A DNA stretch of 64,000 nt. Origin: Pyrinomonadaceae bacterium. GTDB taxonomy: Bacteria > Acidobacteriota > Blastocatellia > Pyrinomonadales > Pyrinomonadaceae. Shown piece after piece: positions 31,691 through 59,301 of the stretch. The stretch's first letter is position 1; each line of letters opens with the position of its first letter. The position numbers and the translations under genes were made by a program. Below the pieces are notes generated by a model. The model did no database searches. It was not told the DNA's origin and was given only the letters and a program-made list of their open reading frames with translations. The DNA is taken from contig DASWRC010000188.1 in NCBI GenBank assembly GCA_036403375.1, positions 23,248 to 87,247 of the forward strand. The letters run 5' to 3'.

Positions 31691-32419
31691 GTGGCTGAAC
31701 AAAATCCCGAAAACCCGATTGCCGCGCAGACGGCGTTTACTGACCGTGACGAGCTTGTCGAACGCTATCGCCCGTACGTCTTCTCGATCGCCAAACAGGT
31801 TTCGCAGAGCTTTCCGGTGCGCATCGATTTTGAAGAGCTGGTCGGTTACGGGATGGTCGGACTGCTCGAAGCCGCCGAGCGCTACGACCCGCGCCGCAAG
31901 GTTTCGTTCGTGACGTTTTCATATTACCGCATCAAGGGCGCGATTTTCGACGGGCTGCGGCAGATGGGAATCCTGACGCGCACGCCGAACGAGGCGTGGG
32001 TGCGCCGCGAATCGGTGCTCAACGATTTGGTGCAGACGGCGTCCGCCGACGAGATGGAAACGCCGGCGGGTTCGGTCGACGACGAAATCGGCGCGGTCGA
32101 AAAGTTTGTCGATTCCCTGATTCCGGCGTATTTGCTTTCACTCAGCGAAGAAAACGCGCCCGACCTTGCCGACTCGCGCGAGCTGCCGAATGTTTCGGTC
32201 GAGTTCTCGGAAACAATTAAAATCGTCCGCGAAACCGTTCGCGAGCTGCCGGAAAAAGAACGCGAAATTATCGAATCGCTTTATTTCCGTCATCTTTCCA
32301 CCACCGAGCTTGCCAAAAAAATGGGCGTCAATAAATCGTGGGTTTCGCGTCTGCACTCAAAAGCCGTCAATCGCCTGCGCCAGCGGCTCGCGATGATTGG
32401 CGTGCTTTCAAATCAATAA
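31691..32419 (+). CDS. fliA: FliA/WhiG-type (sigma-28 family) RNA polymerase sigma factor
   Basis: 242 aa with a GTG start. Regions 2.1-2.4 are LVERYRPYVFSIAKQV ... FEELVGYGMVGLLEAAERYDPRRKVSFVTFSYYRIKGAIFDGLR. The region 4.2 HTH is LSTTELAKKMGVNKSWVSRLHSKAV. Confidence 0.8.
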   Translation: MAEQNPENPIAAQTAFTDRDELVERYRPYVFSIAKQVSQSFPVRIDFEELVGYGMVGLLEAAERYDPRRKVSFVTFSYYRIKGAIFDGLRQMGILTRTPNEAWVRRESVLNDLVQTASADEMETPAGSVDDEIGAVEKFVDSLIPAYLLSLSEENAPDLADSRELPNVSVEFSETIKIVRETVRELPEKEREIIESLYFRHLSTTELAKKMGVNKSWVSRLHSKAVNRLRQRLAMIGVLSNQ

Positions 32420-32550
32420 ATCCCGACCAATTTTAATTTTCTTCGGAATAACCGGGCGCTGATAATTTTGTCCGCTTTTTCAGTTGTCGGCTGTCCGTTT
32501 TCGGCATTCGGGCAGTTAATTTGTTCAAACCATAAAATTTATAGTTCGCA

Positions 32551-32578
32551 GGAAACTTTTCCGGGAACCTGCCGATAA
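32551..32578 (+). promoter_or_regulatory. Sigma-28 (FliA)-type promoter upstream of the 640-aa toxin-like gene
   Basis: GGAAACTTT-tccgggaacct-GCCGATAA. The -35-like GAAACTTT is at 32552-32559, followed by an 11-nt spacer and the -10-like GCCGATAA at 32571-32578. Enterobacterial class-3 consensus is TAAAGTTT-N11-GCCGATAA. Confidence 0.6.
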
Positions 32579-32678
32579 TTTCAACAACAGACGAGAAAAA
32601 ATCGTTGATTCAGTCCCGGGTCCCGGCGCAAAAATTCCGGTTATTAAACTGACTTGAGACCTGAGATTTAGAAGAATT

Positions 32679-34601
32679 ATGGCAAACCCCGTAAATAACA
32701 GTGGAATTAACGCGCAGGTCAGCGTTGGCGGGGCTTTGAAGGCGAATGTCAACGCCGGCGGCGCGGCGCGGCGGATTTCCGATACGCAAAGCAAAGACAT
32801 TTTTGAGAGCGTCAACGAAAATTACACGAAAAATCCGAATCATTCGCGCCCCGCAGAACAAGCCGGCGACGCCGACCAATCGCATCAAAATCAAGTAAAG
32901 GCAGGTAATAATTCCGCGCCGCCCGGTTTGGCAAAAGACGTTCAGGAGGAGCACGCTGCGCCGCCTGCTCCAAATAAACGCACGAAAAATGCGGACATCG
33001 GCGAAGGCGCGGCGCTTCTGAAAACGGCGGCGCGCGGCGAAAACGGCGACGTGAAAAGTTCGCGTCAGGGAATTTTAAACGGTCGCGGGCAGCAAAAATC
33101 GCAAGTTCCGCCGGAACCGGTCGAAACGCCGCCGATTGTGATTCTGCCGACCGACACGAAAGGCAATCAAACAACTATCGAGACGCCGCCGATTATCGCG
33201 CCGCCGAACGGCAACGGCAATCACGGCGGACCGCACAACAACGCGCCGGGTTCCACCGTGCGCAATCCGCGGATAAATAATCAGAACGCTTTCGGCACTC
33301 GGTTTTCGGTCGATTTAAGCTTGCGCGCGAACGGCAATCAGCCCACGGGCGTGATTCGCAATGTCGTCAACCAGATTTTGCGGCAGAACGACGTTTACCT
33401 CAGCCATAACACGCTAAATCGTCTGATAAGCAGCCGGACTTTCAATAATTCGACGCGCGGCTTTAATCATCCGGCGGTGAATTTGCCGCGCGAAGTCAAT
33501 CAACTATTCCAAACGGTGAGCCGCCGCGCGTTGTCTCTGCTCGATAATTCACGGCAGAATCACAAGCTGATTCACGAAATTTCAAAGGAAATCGGACGCG
33601 AATTACGGGAAAATGTTCAAGCCTCCAAAGCGGCAATTTTTAAAACGGCGGATTTAAGAGCGCTGCATTTCAAGCATCTGAATATCAATGAAAAAATGGA
33701 AGTCGCCGTCGATTTGCTGCCGCAGCATCTTCCTGAAAAAGCGCTTGCGCCCATTCAACACCACCAGCCGAGAGAAGTTCTCGACGCCTTTTTGCTCGCG
33801 CGCGGGCTGATTGTTCCGAGCGAAAAAGCGTCGGAAATCAGAAACCTCTTGGCGGCAAAATCGAGCGTTCTGCCGCCTGCAATTTCGATGACGGCGCTGC
33901 GCGATGTCGGTCAACTGGTGAAAACTCTGATTGCCGATACAGCGGCGGCAAAAACGACCGCGAATCTCGATTCGGCAGTGCAGAAATTCGTCAAAATCCT
34001 GCTCGCCAACAACGAGCTGGGCGTTTTGCTTGCCACTATCAGTCTCGTCGCGCAGACGACCAATGAGAGCGGTTTGGTGAGCCGCTCGCTCGCGCTGGCG
34101 CAGATTTATGAGCTTATCAACCAGCTGATTCCGGCGGGCGAGAAGGCTCTCGGCGAAGCCGCACCGGAAAAAAATATTCTGCAAAAGGAACGAAATATTT
34201 TTCACGCCGCCCCCGCGCTTTCAGCCGTCGATGACACGGATGAATCGAGGGCGCAGATAAATAAACTTCACGCCCAAGAGGCGACGGCGGGAAGCCTGCG
34301 CCAATTTCTGGAATTCAACCCCGCGCTGGTTTACGATAAATCGGCGTCCGCTTTTCACAATCCGGACGACGCGCGGCAGGCGCGCGATAATTTTATCAAT
34401 CTTCATCACGACGACCTCCTCGCCTGGCTCGAAAGCGGAAATCACCGGTTCGTCAAAGATTTCGATTTCGACAAACCGGTCGGCGTGGTCGTCGAGCGCG
34501 GCAGCGAGTCGGTTTTTACGGCAACGACGGCGCGTTTCGTGCTCGTTCGCGACGGCTCGGTGCAGGGCTGGCATTTTCTCAAATCATTTCTGGTAAAATA
34601 A
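32679..34601 (+). CDS. Putative T3SS-secreted polymorphic-toxin-like protein (disordered N-terminus, unassigned C-terminal domain)
   Basis: 640 aa with no Sec signal. The first ~210 aa are N/P/G/Q-rich and disordered. A sigma-28-type promoter lies upstream, and a CdiI-like immunity gene follows 18 bp downstream. The C-terminus ends ...ARFVLVRDGSVQGWHFLKSFLVK. Confidence 0.4.
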   Translation: MANPVNNSGINAQVSVGGALKANVNAGGAARRISDTQSKDIFESVNENYTKNPNHSRPAEQAGDADQSHQNQVKAGNNSAPPGLAKDVQEEHAAPPAPNKRTKNADIGEGAALLKTAARGENGDVKSSRQGILNGRGQQKSQVPPEPVETPPIVILPTDTKGNQTTIETPPIIAPPNGNGNHGGPHNNAPGSTVRNPRINNQNAFGTRFSVDLSLRANGNQPTGVIRNVVNQILRQNDVYLSHNTLNRLISSRTFNNSTRGFNHPAVNLPREVNQLFQTVSRRALSLLDNSRQNHKLIHEISKEIGRELRENVQASKAAIFKTADLRALHFKHLNINEKMEVAVDLLPQHLPEKALAPIQHHQPREVLDAFLLARGLIVPSEKASEIRNLLAAKSSVLPPAISMTALRDVGQLVKTLIADTAAAKTTANLDSAVQKFVKILLANNELGVLLATISLVAQTTNESGLVSRSLALAQIYELINQLIPAGEKALGEAAPEKNILQKERNIFHAAPALSAVDDTDESRAQINKLHAQEATAGSLRQFLEFNPALVYDKSASAFHNPDDARQARDNFINLHHDDLLAWLESGNHRFVKDFDFDKPVGVVVERGSESVFTATTARFVLVRDGSVQGWHFLKSFLVK

Positions 34602-34619
34602 ATCTCACCACAAAAAAAG

Positions 34620-58561: not shown

Positions 58562-58622
58562 TGTTGCTTCTCCTTTTGGATTTTTGAAACTTTTGCGAAA
58601 TACAATTAGTGCTTATCAAATG

Positions 58623-58650
58623 TTTTCGACGGAAAATCCGAAAAGTTTCC
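58623..58650 (-). promoter_or_regulatory. Sigma-28-type promoter upstream of the SctI-like / lytic transglycosylase unit
   Basis: The reverse strand reads GGAAACTTT-tcggattttcc-GTCGAAAA with an 11-nt spacer. Confidence 0.5.
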
Positions 58651-58678
58651 TGATTTTTTAAGAATTTTTAAAGATTTT

Positions 58679-59143
58679 TCAAGCCGCTTTCGAGAGTCTT
58701 TCGACAGTATGGAGAAGCGCGCGGGCGCGCGTGAAGCATTGTTCGAGCAGGTTGCTGGTCGGGATTTTATCGCGCCGGCGAAGGACGAATTTCAAATCCT
58801 TTTTCGCCGCCTCGTAGTTTTCGAGCCGGAGATGAACTTCGCCGCGATTAACGCGTGTCGGAATGTCGTTCGGGTCTGCCGACAAAGCGGCGTTTAAATG
58901 CGGCAGCGCTTTTGCGGGATTGTTTTCTCTGAGCCAGAGCGCTCCCAGTGCGACTTCGAAATAGACGGTCGCCGGCGCGAGCGCGATTAAGCCTTCAAAA
59001 ATCGTGATGGCTTCGTGGTTGCGACCCTGTTCCGCCAAAGCGAAGCCAAGCTCGGAAACAAGCCGGATTTCATCTGCCGCCCAGCCCGCCGCCGCGCCTA
59101 AAGACGCGTTGCCGTTTATCCATTCCTGCTCGAATTGAATCAT
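58679..59143 (-). CDS. TPR-type (class II-like) type III secretion chaperone
   Basis: Track ORF starts at a TTG (59155); the first ATG is at complement 59141-59143. Three TPR units have a SycD/LcrH-like layout (AITIFEGLIALAPATVYFEVALGALWLRENNPAKALPHLNAAL...). Confidence 0.55.
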   Translation of the reverse strand: MIQFEQEWINGNASLGAAAGWAADEIRLVSELGFALAEQGRNHEAITIFEGLIALAPATVYFEVALGALWLRENNPAKALPHLNAALSADPNDIPTRVNRGEVHLRLENYEAAKKDLKFVLRRRDKIPTSNLLEQCFTRARALLHTVERLSKAA

Positions 59144-59273
59144 CGCTGACTTCAAAATTAACTTAATTTTTCGGCAAAGTCATCTTTCGCAGAAAAAAAA
59201 TCGTTCCGCAAATGCCGATTTTTATTGAGGAAAATTAAAAAGCGAAATTTTTTTCAAAAAATTTCAAAAAACA

Positions 59274-59301
59274 GGAAACTTTTCCGCACGTCGCCCGATA
59301 A
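59274..59301 (+). promoter_or_regulatory. Sigma-28-type promoter upstream of the Gly-rich protein / TPR / sctF unit
   Basis: GGAAACTTT-tccgcacgtcg-CCCGATAA with an 11-nt spacer. The first 13 nt (GGAAACTTTTCCG) are identical to the copy at 32551. Confidence 0.6.

Follow-up and report, generated by a model that had tools for sequence, protein, structure and literature searches.

We analysed a stretch of 64,000 nucleotides from a Pyrinomonadaceae bacterium (GenBank assembly GCA_036403375.1, contig DASWRC010000188.1, positions 23,248 to 87,247 of the forward strand), referred to throughout as the window and numbered from its first letter. [quoted passage not shown] Within the cluster lies the gene for a group-3 sigma factor of 242 amino acids (31691..32419, plus strand; hereafter the T3SS sigma), a divergent member of the FliA/WhiG family, together with a set of repeated sigma-28-like sites (P1 to P8) that precede genes for candidate secreted proteins and their helpers. 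Judging from the sequence comparisons set out below, we consider it probable that a cluster-encoded FliA-type sigma factor is paired here with sigma-28-style promoters in front of the substrate operons of a non-flagellar T3SS.

Sigma-28-like sites in the window and in related loci

A preliminary description of this DNA listed seven sites of the form GGAAACTTT-N11-NNCGANAA, each correctly oriented in front of a gene, and both statements are confirmed. The window contains seven exact copies against 0.03 expected, and none of 100 dinucleotide shuffles contained seven or more. All seven sit inside the T3SS cluster (32.5-59.3 kb) and every one of them faces a start codon 23-100 nt past the -10 block, the intervening stretch including a ribosome-binding site. 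The exact copies are P1 (GGAAACTTT-N11-GCCGATAA; 32551..32578, plus strand), which lies directly 3' of the sigma gene and 100 nt from the ATG at 32679; P2 (36214..36241, minus strand), 83 nt from the ATG at 36130; P3 (46229..46256, minus strand), 37 nt from the ATG at 46191; P4 (47785..47812, minus strand; -10 block GCCGAAAA); P6 (48621..48648, plus strand); P7 (58623..58650, minus strand; -10 block GTCGAAAA) and P8 (59274..59301, plus strand; -10 block CCCGATAA). A position weight matrix (PWM) was built from these seven sites, which themselves score 27-30 bits, and it detects nothing of similar strength in the window's 36 kb of flanking, non-T3SS DNA. After the seven, scores drop to 18.8 bits, at 47945-47972(+), and then to 17.2 bits, at 17573(-), where the match falls within a 2497-aa open reading frame (ORF). 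The 18.8-bit site is P5 (AGAAACTAT-N11-GTCGATAA, full site AGAAACTATTACGGAAAAATGTCGATAA; 47945..47972, plus strand), a weaker site upstream of the gene for a conserved 134-aa protein (p134), and its GAAAC and CGATAA blocks are invariant across eight orthologous regions. P5 was missed in the preliminary description, which instead placed an eighth, weaker site before sctU (around 50590). The bases conserved at that position form a sigma-70-like promoter, and the CCGAAAT on which the eighth site would depend varies.

The likeness to sigma-28 promoters, also remarked on earlier, is close. The published sigma-28 consensus is TAAAGTTT-n11-GCCGATAA (PMC2859248), with C-13 and G-12 as the distinguishing bases (bioRxiv 10.1101/2020.01.02.893370). 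The consensus -10 block of the sites described here is GCCGATAA, identical at 8/8 positions, and the spacer is likewise 11 nt, while the -35 block GGAAACTTT agrees with the flagellar (T)AAAGTTT at six of the eight consensus positions. Across 59 sites from the window and its relatives, the consensus reads GGAAACtTT-N11-gcCGAtAA with a spacer fixed at 11 nt and an invariant CG (59/59). Signal that is independent of the way the sites were selected appears on either side of these blocks: an A-tract at -7 to -3 and a C plus purine immediately 5' of the -35 block, then a pyrimidine followed by T on the 3' side of the -10 block, with purines 9-11 nt downstream. The promoter consensus we propose is AAAAAnCA-GGAAAC(T/A)TT-N11-GCCGA(T/A)AA. 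Two leader sequences are also conserved within their orthologous groups, namely TTGATAAGC after P7 (58600-58622) and TATAGCCAGACAAG after P8 (59302-59320), and these could be start-site contexts or post-transcriptional signals. No sigma-28-like site that might serve autoregulation was found 5' of the sigma gene, where the sctO-sigma intergenic region aligns poorly between loci.

The sites are retained in relatives. A SctU scan of species-representative genomes returned 17 Pyrinomonadaceae loci (55-90% identity) and six other acidobacterial-type T3SS loci, along with many unrelated flagellar or T3SS loci; four additional loci (L081-L084) were centred on the sigma gene. Every locus examined has the sigma linked to T3SS genes, and in all of the relatives the sigma gene and sctO are divergently arranged. 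Together the window and 21 relatives (431 kb) contain 60 PWM sites scoring at least 20 bits. An ORF starts no more than 250 nt downstream of 57 of these 60. In all, 59 of the 60 precede genes, and the single evident chance match (20.3 bits) lies within the release-factor gene of L082. The unrelated T3SS and flagellar loci (1.0 Mb) yielded three matches of at least 17 bits. Orthologous positions are occupied before the cargo gene that follows sigma and before p154, p742, hydrolase/p138, the peptidoglycan (PG) hydrolase, p192/SLT and Gly-rich/TPR/p71 (the genes are described below). Orthologues of P1 are found just 3' of sigma in L081-L084, those of P2 in L081, L082, L084, L015, L016 and L017, of P3 in L001, L002, L004 and L009, of P6 in L001-L010 and L013, of P7 in L001, L002, L007, L009, L010 and L016, and of P8, with GGAAACA(T/A)T, in L001, L002, L007, L009 and L012. 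Between orthologues both blocks are fixed and the spacer and flanks diverge, and the sites persist down to 55% SctU identity and after gene rearrangement.

A metagenome scan with the exact 17-base consensus gave a compatible picture. Among the matches listed, 33 of 80 also carry cluster homologues, mostly on contigs of 1-5 kb. Several others show an A-rich upstream context and then genes for proteins that lack a signal peptide and have a toxin domain or no known domain, the toxin domains being CdiA_C in L164 (E = 4e-16) and a sub-threshold HNH in L102 (E = 7e-4). Some high-GC matches look like chance. Overall, the scan disfavours the idea that the motif is common at non-promoter positions.

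The T3SS sigma and the reader of the sites

The T3SS sigma contains the Pfam domains Sigma70_r2 and Sigma70_r4 and is full length, with a region 3. Its best NCBIfam family is TIGR02479 (FliA_WhiG; 129 bits), to which residues 22-233 align over model positions 1-223 of 224, as compared to 79 bits on SigBFG; its relatives score 114-132 bits on TIGR02479. The top six solved-structure matches include four named FliA chains (1rp3 from Aquifex, 9wsm/9wsf, and 6pmi from E. coli; E = 8e-23 to 1e-18) and two, 6pfv/6pfj, that are named only 'RNA polymerase sigma factor', with SigF and RpoS far weaker. The family and structure matches therefore sustain the earlier assignment of this gene to the FliA/WhiG family, though its score lies below the NCBIfam cut-off.

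We aligned the T3SS sigma residue by residue with E. coli FliA (NC_000913.3), four flagellar FliA proteins of the fetched loci and the T3SS-linked relatives, and took the contact residues from the E. coli sigma-28 initiation complex (bioRxiv 10.1101/2020.01.02.893370). The -10 contacts T69, R74, R84, R98 and R58 (E. coli FliA numbering) are all kept in the T3SS sigma. The same is true of D81 and R91, two residues for which roles in FliA have reportedly been described. Residues R34, R94, R95, H26, Q63 and Q73 are not kept, and these positions are variable among the flagellar FliA controls too. Both -35 contacts are altered, K208 being replaced by T and R220 by W. Position 208 is E in the Bryobacterales sigma, and W replaces R220 in all of the Pyrinomonadaceae sequences and in 2/3 of those from Bryobacterales/Terriglobia, whereas the four flagellar controls have K or R at 208 and R at 220. 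An unchanged -10 block and a changed -35 block in the motif fit with the kept -10 contacts and altered -35 contacts in the protein. The T3SS sigma thus appears to be a divergent FliA-family member in which the predicted -10-reading surface is conserved and the predicted -35-reading surface is altered.

A second acidobacterial lineage shows a parallel arrangement. The T3SS loci of Bryobacterales/Terriglobia (L018-L021 and L023) have a SctU that is ~42% identical to that of the window, and four of the five contain an in-cluster sigma gene (33% identical), the fifth, L021, being an 8-kb contig that ends short of that part of the cluster. FliA_WhiG is again the best family for these sigma factors (125-132 bits). 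The PWM scan did not find the Pyrinomonadaceae motif in the Bryobacterales/Terriglobia loci. A restricted dyad count instead yielded GCAAC-N16/17-CGATAA, which is present in 20 copies in 84 kb of these loci, against 0.035 expected from Markov simulations, and elsewhere once in 1.0 Mb of other loci and twice in Pyrinomonadaceae loci. Nineteen of the 20 copies are on the strand of the T3SS genes, one copy lies directly 3' of the sigma gene in all four loci that hold it, and the spacing from AAC to CGATAA is identical in this motif and the window motif. Two diverged sigma lineages, each with its own version of the promoter, provide the strongest indirect evidence that the cluster sigma reads the sites.

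The sites could be genuine sigma-28-type promoters and yet have as their reader a flagellar FliA whose gene lies elsewhere in the genome, acting alongside the cluster sigma or alone; the cluster sigma would then have other targets. The -10 block is identical to the flagellar consensus (PMC2859248), and the E. coli structure indicates that sigma-28 binds the -10 element strongly and the -35 element weakly (bioRxiv 10.1101/2020.01.02.893370). Moreover, the type species of the family, Pyrinomonas methylaliphatogenes, is non-motile but reportedly has a near-complete set of flagellar genes (PMC4644332), so that a flagellar FliA, if present in the same cell, could recognise this -10 block too. Some of the P. 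methylaliphatogenes flagellar genes could be T3SS genes of the kind found in the window, or the family could have both machines. We regard this explanation as unlikely. No flagellar gene was found in the 64-kb window, and the motif accompanies the cluster sigma wherever the cluster occurs, including the site directly 3' of the sigma gene. The -35 block is unlike TAAAG and changes along with the sigma lineage, being GGAAAC in Pyrinomonadaceae and GCAAC in Bryobacterales, and region 4.2 departs from flagellar FliA at both -35 contacts.

Reading by a sigma factor of the extracytoplasmic function (ECF) group, as for HrpL at the hrp box or for BtrS, is considerably less probable again. The motif can be written as an ECF-like AAC-N16-CGA/T (-35 AAC and -10 CGA/CGT, ~16 nt apart); ECF consensus sequences such as TGAAAC-N16-CGTA do resemble GGAAAC-N16-CGA, and one related locus, L084, has a gene for an ECF-sized sigma of 192 aa 4 kb from the cluster. 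That gene is absent from the other loci, however, and there is no ECF sigma gene in the cluster of the window. The cluster sigma, full length and including region 3, favours FliA_WhiG over SigBFG (129 versus 79 bits), and the full 8-nt -10 block GCCGATAA with its 11-nt spacer is that of sigma-28 (PMC2859248).

Slightly less probable still is that the repeats, instead of serving sigma recognition, are bound by a transcription factor such as the response regulator of the LuxR type encoded at 26907-27704. A histidine kinase and this LuxR-family regulator do stand at the end of the sctO operon, but the pair is absent from L082-L084, which retain the motif. The motif is also bipartite and non-palindromic, with a fixed spacer, a strict co-orientation and a distance of 23-110 nt to start codons, and these are properties of a promoter rather than of the site of a dimeric response regulator. 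Finally, chance matches or remnants of a small mobile repeat with no regulatory role, for which repetition is the sole point in favour, can be set aside because of the conservation pattern: the seven copies compare with an expectation of 0.03, conservation is confined to the two blocks, with spacer and flanks varying from copy to copy as well as between orthologues, and orthologous positions retain the sites down to 55% SctU identity and after rearrangement.

Genes behind the sites and the core machine

The P1 operon begins with a gene for a 640-aa protein that has a C-terminal CdiA-CT RNase A-like toxin domain (32679-34601, plus strand; PF18431, E = 2e-8) and continues with a CdiI-type immunity gene (34620-34973, plus strand; PF18593, E = 4.5e-13). 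A toxin-immunity gene pair is also found 3' of sigma in L081-L083. Toxin cargo was recorded in the window (32679-34973), L081 (12530-14880), L082 (10828-12747), L083 (12598-14818), L011 (17475-18093), L164 and L102. These proteins have no signal peptide and carry a C-terminal CdiA-CT RNase A-like or CdiA_C domain, or the sub-threshold HNH in the case of L102, and a CdiI-type immunity gene follows the toxin in the window, L081-L083 and L011. On these domain matches, the cargo behind the sites has the appearance of antibacterial polymorphic toxins, and the pairing of nuclease toxins with immunity genes points to bacterial targets. Classical polymorphic toxins do not appear to use T3SSs (Zhang et al. 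2012). A T3SS directed against bacteria would be out of the ordinary. In L081 (10865-12476), L083 (10954-12570) and L084 (10844-12417), a gene for a DUF1521 protein, then one for a TPR protein, comes first after the sigma's promoter; DUF1521 is the domain found in the rhizobial T3SS effector NopE.

P2 precedes genes for a needle- or pilin-like protein of 154 aa (p154; 35666-36130, minus strand) and for a TPR chaperone-like protein of 133 aa (35164-35565, minus strand; TPR_19, E = 5e-17). The C-terminus of p154 aligns with that of p71, a 71-aa protein encoded at 60357 (BLASTP E = 6e-9). The best match of either protein to a needle or pilin model is that of p154 to the HrpA pilin, which is weak and under cut-off (E = 0.004), and p71 has no significant match in the PDB or the family libraries. 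P3 stands before the gene for p742, a candidate cargo protein of 742 aa (43963..46191, minus strand) with no Pfam or NCBIfam match. In its relatives from L004 (2794-3393) and L009 (5824-6426) only the N-terminal ~200 residues are conserved, a pattern compatible with a polymorphic effector whose C-termini vary behind a constant N-terminal module. The P4 operon encodes a 325-aa protein with a weak alpha/beta-hydrolase signal (46784-47761, minus strand; Abhydrolase_6, E = 0.0018, under cut-off) and p138, a 138-aa protein without an assigned family that is possibly a chaperone (46347-46763, minus strand). This gene pair is syntenic in L001-L006 and L012, and the 325-aa gene probably starts 5-6 codons inside the listed ORF because its orthologues align from residue 6-7.

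P6 lies upstream of a gene for a 630-aa peptidoglycan-binding protein (48690..50582, plus strand) with three PG_binding_1 domains (E = 7e-37) and a weak Peptidase_M15_3 signal that is under cut-off (E = 0.004). This PG-hydrolase gene was probably inserted into a p134-sctU unit, since it is absent from L012 and L014-L017. Behind P7 are genes for p192, a 192-aa protein with a weakly SctI-like C-terminus (57983-58561, minus strand; NF038054, E = 0.04, under cut-off), and for a 378-aa SLT lytic transglycosylase (56756-57892, minus strand; SLT, E = 1.5e-15). The P8 operon (59396..60572, plus strand) encodes a Gly-rich protein of 152 aa, a TPR chaperone-like protein of 156 aa that matches TPR families, and the needle-like p71, and its synteny is kept in L001, L002, L007 and L009. 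A DUF6683 gene (60600-61508, plus strand) is possibly part of the same unit; the start of its product is probably an internal Met, behind which comes a stretch resembling a signal peptide.

A Sec-type hydrophobic N-terminus was found on none of the proteins behind the sites, including the two cell-wall enzymes. FlgJ in flagella is exported through the flagellar machine, and by analogy the P6 peptidoglycan-binding protein and the P7 transglycosylase may be exported via the T3SS itself. The expectation that needle, rod and cargo genes would lie behind the sites holds as far as needle-like, rod-like, lytic, chaperone and cargo genes are concerned, whereas the labels SctF (p71 and p154) and SctI (p192) are plausible ones that rest on weak similarity.

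The core machine is encoded in two operons that have no sigma-28-like site of their own. The first (36676..43885, plus strand) comprises sctD, with FHA and YscD-like domains, sctV, sctJ, a 336-aa protein at the SctK position, sctL and sctN, and the PWM scan found no site of 20 bits or more in it. The second, for the export apparatus (50716..56477, plus strand), comprises sctU (Bac_export_2, E = 2e-117), p216, sctQ (FliMN_C/FliM), a fliO-like gene, sctR, sctS and sctT; it likewise lacks PWM sites of 20 bits or more, with a top internal match of 14.7 bits. SctV (TIGR01399, 703 bits) and SctN (TIGR02546, 643 bits) both exceed the NCBIfam equivalog cut-offs, the SctJ, SctL, SctR, SctT and FliO models were also matched in the NCBIfam scan of window ORFs, and sctO is YscO-like. 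The sctS call was made on position, size and the presence of conserved counterparts in related loci, among them flagellar FlhB-centred ones. Genes for rod, hook, flagellin or motor parts were not found among the ORFs scanned across the 64-kb window. Flagellum-like traits are nevertheless apparent in the FliO-like gene (53979-54416), in an SctQ with FliM and FliN domains (52472-53902), in the weak FliG_M match of the SctK-position protein (40881-41891; E = 0.007) and in a FliK-like protein (27709-28413). The same ORFs include no Secretin-domain protein that could act as SctC, the gene for which may lie elsewhere in the genome. The system, secretin-less within the window, may be an early-branching T3SS of the Myxococcus-type kind. 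Abby and Rocha (PMC3459982) detected non-flagellar T3SSs only in Chlamydiae, Proteobacteria and Verrucomicrobia, and our literature search did not find a report of an acidobacterial T3SS.

Other features of the cluster were noted in passing. In every related locus, the sctO-sctP operon conserves genes for two further proteins, one with an FGE-sulfatase domain and the other a large TPR protein whose N-terminus is hydrophobic (window 28429-30948; ~6700-9230 in L081-L084). In the window (23898-27704) the sctO operon closes with a Reg_prop/Y_Y_Y histidine kinase and a response regulator of the LuxR type; the pair is also present in L081 and absent from L082-L084, and may be an optional upstream input. 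Between sctD and p101, a small ORF, the intergenic region at 36604-36660 has a conserved block with the near-palindrome TGATAATATC, and, on its minus strand, a TTGACA free of mismatches that is followed 18 nt downstream by GATATT and is oriented towards p101. This block may be a regulator site or an early promoter. An Rfam scan of the window gave zero matches.

Two conserved sigma-70-like promoters were found in front of core genes. The first, upstream of sctU (TGTACA/TTGTAa-17/18-TAAAAT; 50597..50625, plus strand), is the feature taken earlier for the eighth sigma-28-like site: across nine orthologous regions (alignment A1), TTGTA and GTAAAAT are invariant and 17-18 nt apart. The second, TTAACA-17-TATAAT (48038..48066, plus strand), has 11/12 consensus matches and is arranged in tandem with P5. 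In alignment A3, which covers the interval between the hydrolase gene and p134, there are three conserved islands, corresponding to P4, to (A/G)GAAAC...CGATAA (P5) and to TTAACA-17-TATAAT; TTAACAAA and TATAAT are invariant here. A generic promoter scan was at shuffle level for 31-51 kb and about twice the shuffle mean for 46-64 kb, and terminator-like matches were at shuffle level in both; the matches at shuffle level say little by themselves.

The p134 gene (48096..48500, plus strand) would therefore have dual tandem promoters, one weak and sigma-28-like, the other sigma-70-like. Enteric flgM has tandem sigma-70-like and sigma-28-like promoters as well. The protein, which has no assigned family and no Pfam or NCBIfam match, is conserved in 15 of the 17 Pyrinomonadaceae loci (39-89% identity), always 5' of sctU. 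In some loci the PG-hydrolase gene lies between the two; in distant relatives p134 is immediately 5' of sctU, and that gene and P6 are missing. Its N-terminus, MS(I/V)KKT(S)SPL (MAIKKTGSPL in the window), resembles the MSIDRTSPL of E. coli FlgM. The searches for an anti-sigma factor agree with the earlier remark that no FlgM is recognisable, as Pfam, NCBIfam, PDB-profile and hhalign comparisons were all without a match. No FlgM was found among ten small ORFs (Pfam E up to 10; NCBIfam E up to 1), a search of low power for a short, divergent protein. Profiles of p134 and p216 gave nothing meaningful against the PDB, p134 having only two matches, neither of them an anti-sigma factor, and the hhalign probability for either against E. 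coli FlgM was at most 0.1%. The p101 protein showed no FlgM similarity in the Pfam and NCBIfam small-ORF scans. An RsiG-like motif for cyclic di-GMP binding, ExxxSxxRxxxQ, was considered in p134 and rejected as a chance match because neither E...S, which lies in a variable gapped region, nor Q, which is E in distant orthologues, is conserved. From among the small ORFs put forward previously as anti-sigma candidates, we keep the one at 48096 (p134) as a weak lead because of its dual promoter and FlgM-like N-terminus, and p134, p216 and p101 all gave no FlgM signal. Of the possible regulatory partners of the T3SS sigma, p134 would be the best candidate, if still a weak one.

A proposed substrate regulon and its relation to known systems

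In the mechanism that we propose, the divergent FliA-family sigma of the cluster would direct RNA polymerase to at least eight promoters within it. The -10 block would be read by conserved FliA-type residues of sigma regions 2 and 3, and the -35 block, like the two contact residues in region 4.2, would have departed from the flagellar version. These promoters are predicted to drive exported proteins and their helpers, namely the needle-like and rod-like subunits, TPR chaperones, two cell-wall-cutting enzymes and cargo that may include a nuclease toxin together with its immunity gene. The outcome would be a two-tier programme, with the machine made from housekeeping-type promoters and its substrates from those of the dedicated sigma; at least two core-machine starts (p134 and sctU) appear to use conserved sigma-70-like promoters. 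A feed-forward into the sctU operon is possible, by way of P5, the weak site of p134, and of transcription that continues from the hydrolase promoter. The preliminary description spoke of a flagellum-style hierarchy of late genes. The sites do precede substrate operons, but the 'late gene' analogy is unfit because the sigma class includes candidates for the needle and the inner rod, both of them substrates exported early. Exported substrates together with their chaperones is the better description of the class, the dividing line running between what is exported and the machine that stays behind, and not between early and late.

Several points weigh against this mechanism, in addition to the flagellar genes of the family's type species and the ECF-like appearance of the motif considered above. 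The T3SS sigma, at 129 bits, falls short of the TIGR02479 cut-off (189.6), while the flagellar FliA control from L022 scores 257.9. In the Bryobacterales loci, the site 3' of sigma precedes core genes. There is no evident terminator between P6 and the sctU promoter, so that read-through into the export operon is possible and the tiers are perhaps not cleanly separate. An anti-sigma factor was not found by the small-ORF family scans, by the p134 and p216 profiles or by hhalign against FlgM, and for this reason a flagellum-style assembly checkpoint is put forward here by inference only. We also infer, on sequence grounds, that the predicted sites function as promoters and depend on sigma, and that this sigma is their reader, as we do the start points, the order of expression and the coupling of sigma to secretion. 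A more far-reaching proposal, which seems to us doubtful though possible, is that a secretin-less, early-branching acidobacterial T3SS kept the sigma-28 module on ceasing to be a flagellum and uses it to drive all of its substrates, polymorphic nuclease toxins and their immunity proteins among them, that the system is antibacterial, that an exported antagonist (for instance p134) couples sigma to secretion, and that the retuned region 4.2 and -35 block insulate the regulon from flagellar FliA.

The proposed arrangement invites comparison with the flagellar system of E. coli and Salmonella. It has a sigma of the same family as FliA with the -10-reading residues kept, promoters resembling those of flagellar class 3 in their 8-nt -35 block, 11-nt spacer and GCCGATAA, and, as with flagellar sigma-28, a sigma that would be reserved for what a type III machine exports; the tandem sigma-70-like and sigma-28-like promoters of p134 recall those of enteric flgM. 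It differs in that the machine is non-flagellar, with genes of the sctD, sctJ and sctV type. The -35 block is GGAAAC and not TAAAG, K208 and R220 are replaced, the sigma is under the family cut-off and FlgM was not found. Unlike the flagellar late class, the predicted sigma-dependent set already includes needle-like and rod-like subunits.

Alternative sigma factors are known to control other T3SS regulons. HrpL of Pseudomonas syringae and Erwinia is an ECF (group-4) sigma that acts at the hrp box, GGAACC-N15/16-CCACNNA. As in the HrpL system, a cluster-encoded alternative sigma would here be matched to a bipartite promoter before genes for T3SS pilus, helper and effector proteins, but the sigma in this case is a group-3, FliA-like one and the -10 block is GCCGATAA. 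BtrS of Bordetella is also an ECF sigma, and its activity is coupled to secretion of the antagonist BtrA/BspR. The likeness to BtrS lies in an alternative sigma placed over an injectisome regulon and in the similar secretion coupling proposed here; the sigma families differ, and our searches of the window found no antagonist. Sigma-driven T3SS regulons, as with HrpL and BtrS, and sigma-28 promoters are thus each known, and here they would be combined in an injectisome-like system, in a phylum for which our literature search found no published T3SS.

FliA-type sigma factors have also been retained for non-flagellar targets elsewhere, a property that the window shares with Chlamydia, whose sigma-28 is a FliA-type sigma in an organism without flagella, and with Legionella oakridgensis. 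The latter has no flagellum but has kept FliA and FlgM, and since its FlgM is seemingly degraded and not secreted, a secretion checkpoint is not obligatory (PMC5655016). In both of these organisms, unlike here, the sigma genes lie outside T3SS clusters. Neither sigma-28 is known to us to drive T3SS needle, rod and cargo operons via a repeated cluster-wide promoter.

The 'Myxo-type' T3SS (or T3SS*) of Myxococcus has a FliO homologue and is without core injectisome genes, and one such system is needleless, with a Tad-like pilus, and functions in the contact-dependent killing of prey bacteria (PMC3459982, PMC12075869, PMC12248157). The system in the window resembles it in coming from a soil bacterium, in its FliO-like gene, in the lack of a secretin in 64 kb and in its antibacterial-looking cargo. 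It is set apart by its needle-like proteins and by an SctU only ~37% identical to that of L070, the single Myxococcaceae locus fetched, in which there is no sigma gene within 10 kb of sctU.

To our knowledge, the regulators of injectisomes are AraC-type activators, response regulators and ECF sigmas, and not a flagellar sigma. Injectisomes are thought to descend from the flagellum (PMC3459982). Further ties to the flagellum in this system are FliO, the FliM-like SctQ and the cell-wall hydrolases that lack signal peptides. In practical terms, the promoter provides a simple sequence tag with which cargo of the system can be found in metagenomes. If the proposal is true, a T3SS that keeps a FliA-type sigma and sigma-28-style promoters would constitute a regulatory link between flagellum and injectisome, and it suggests that this machine kept the flagellum's way of switching genes on.

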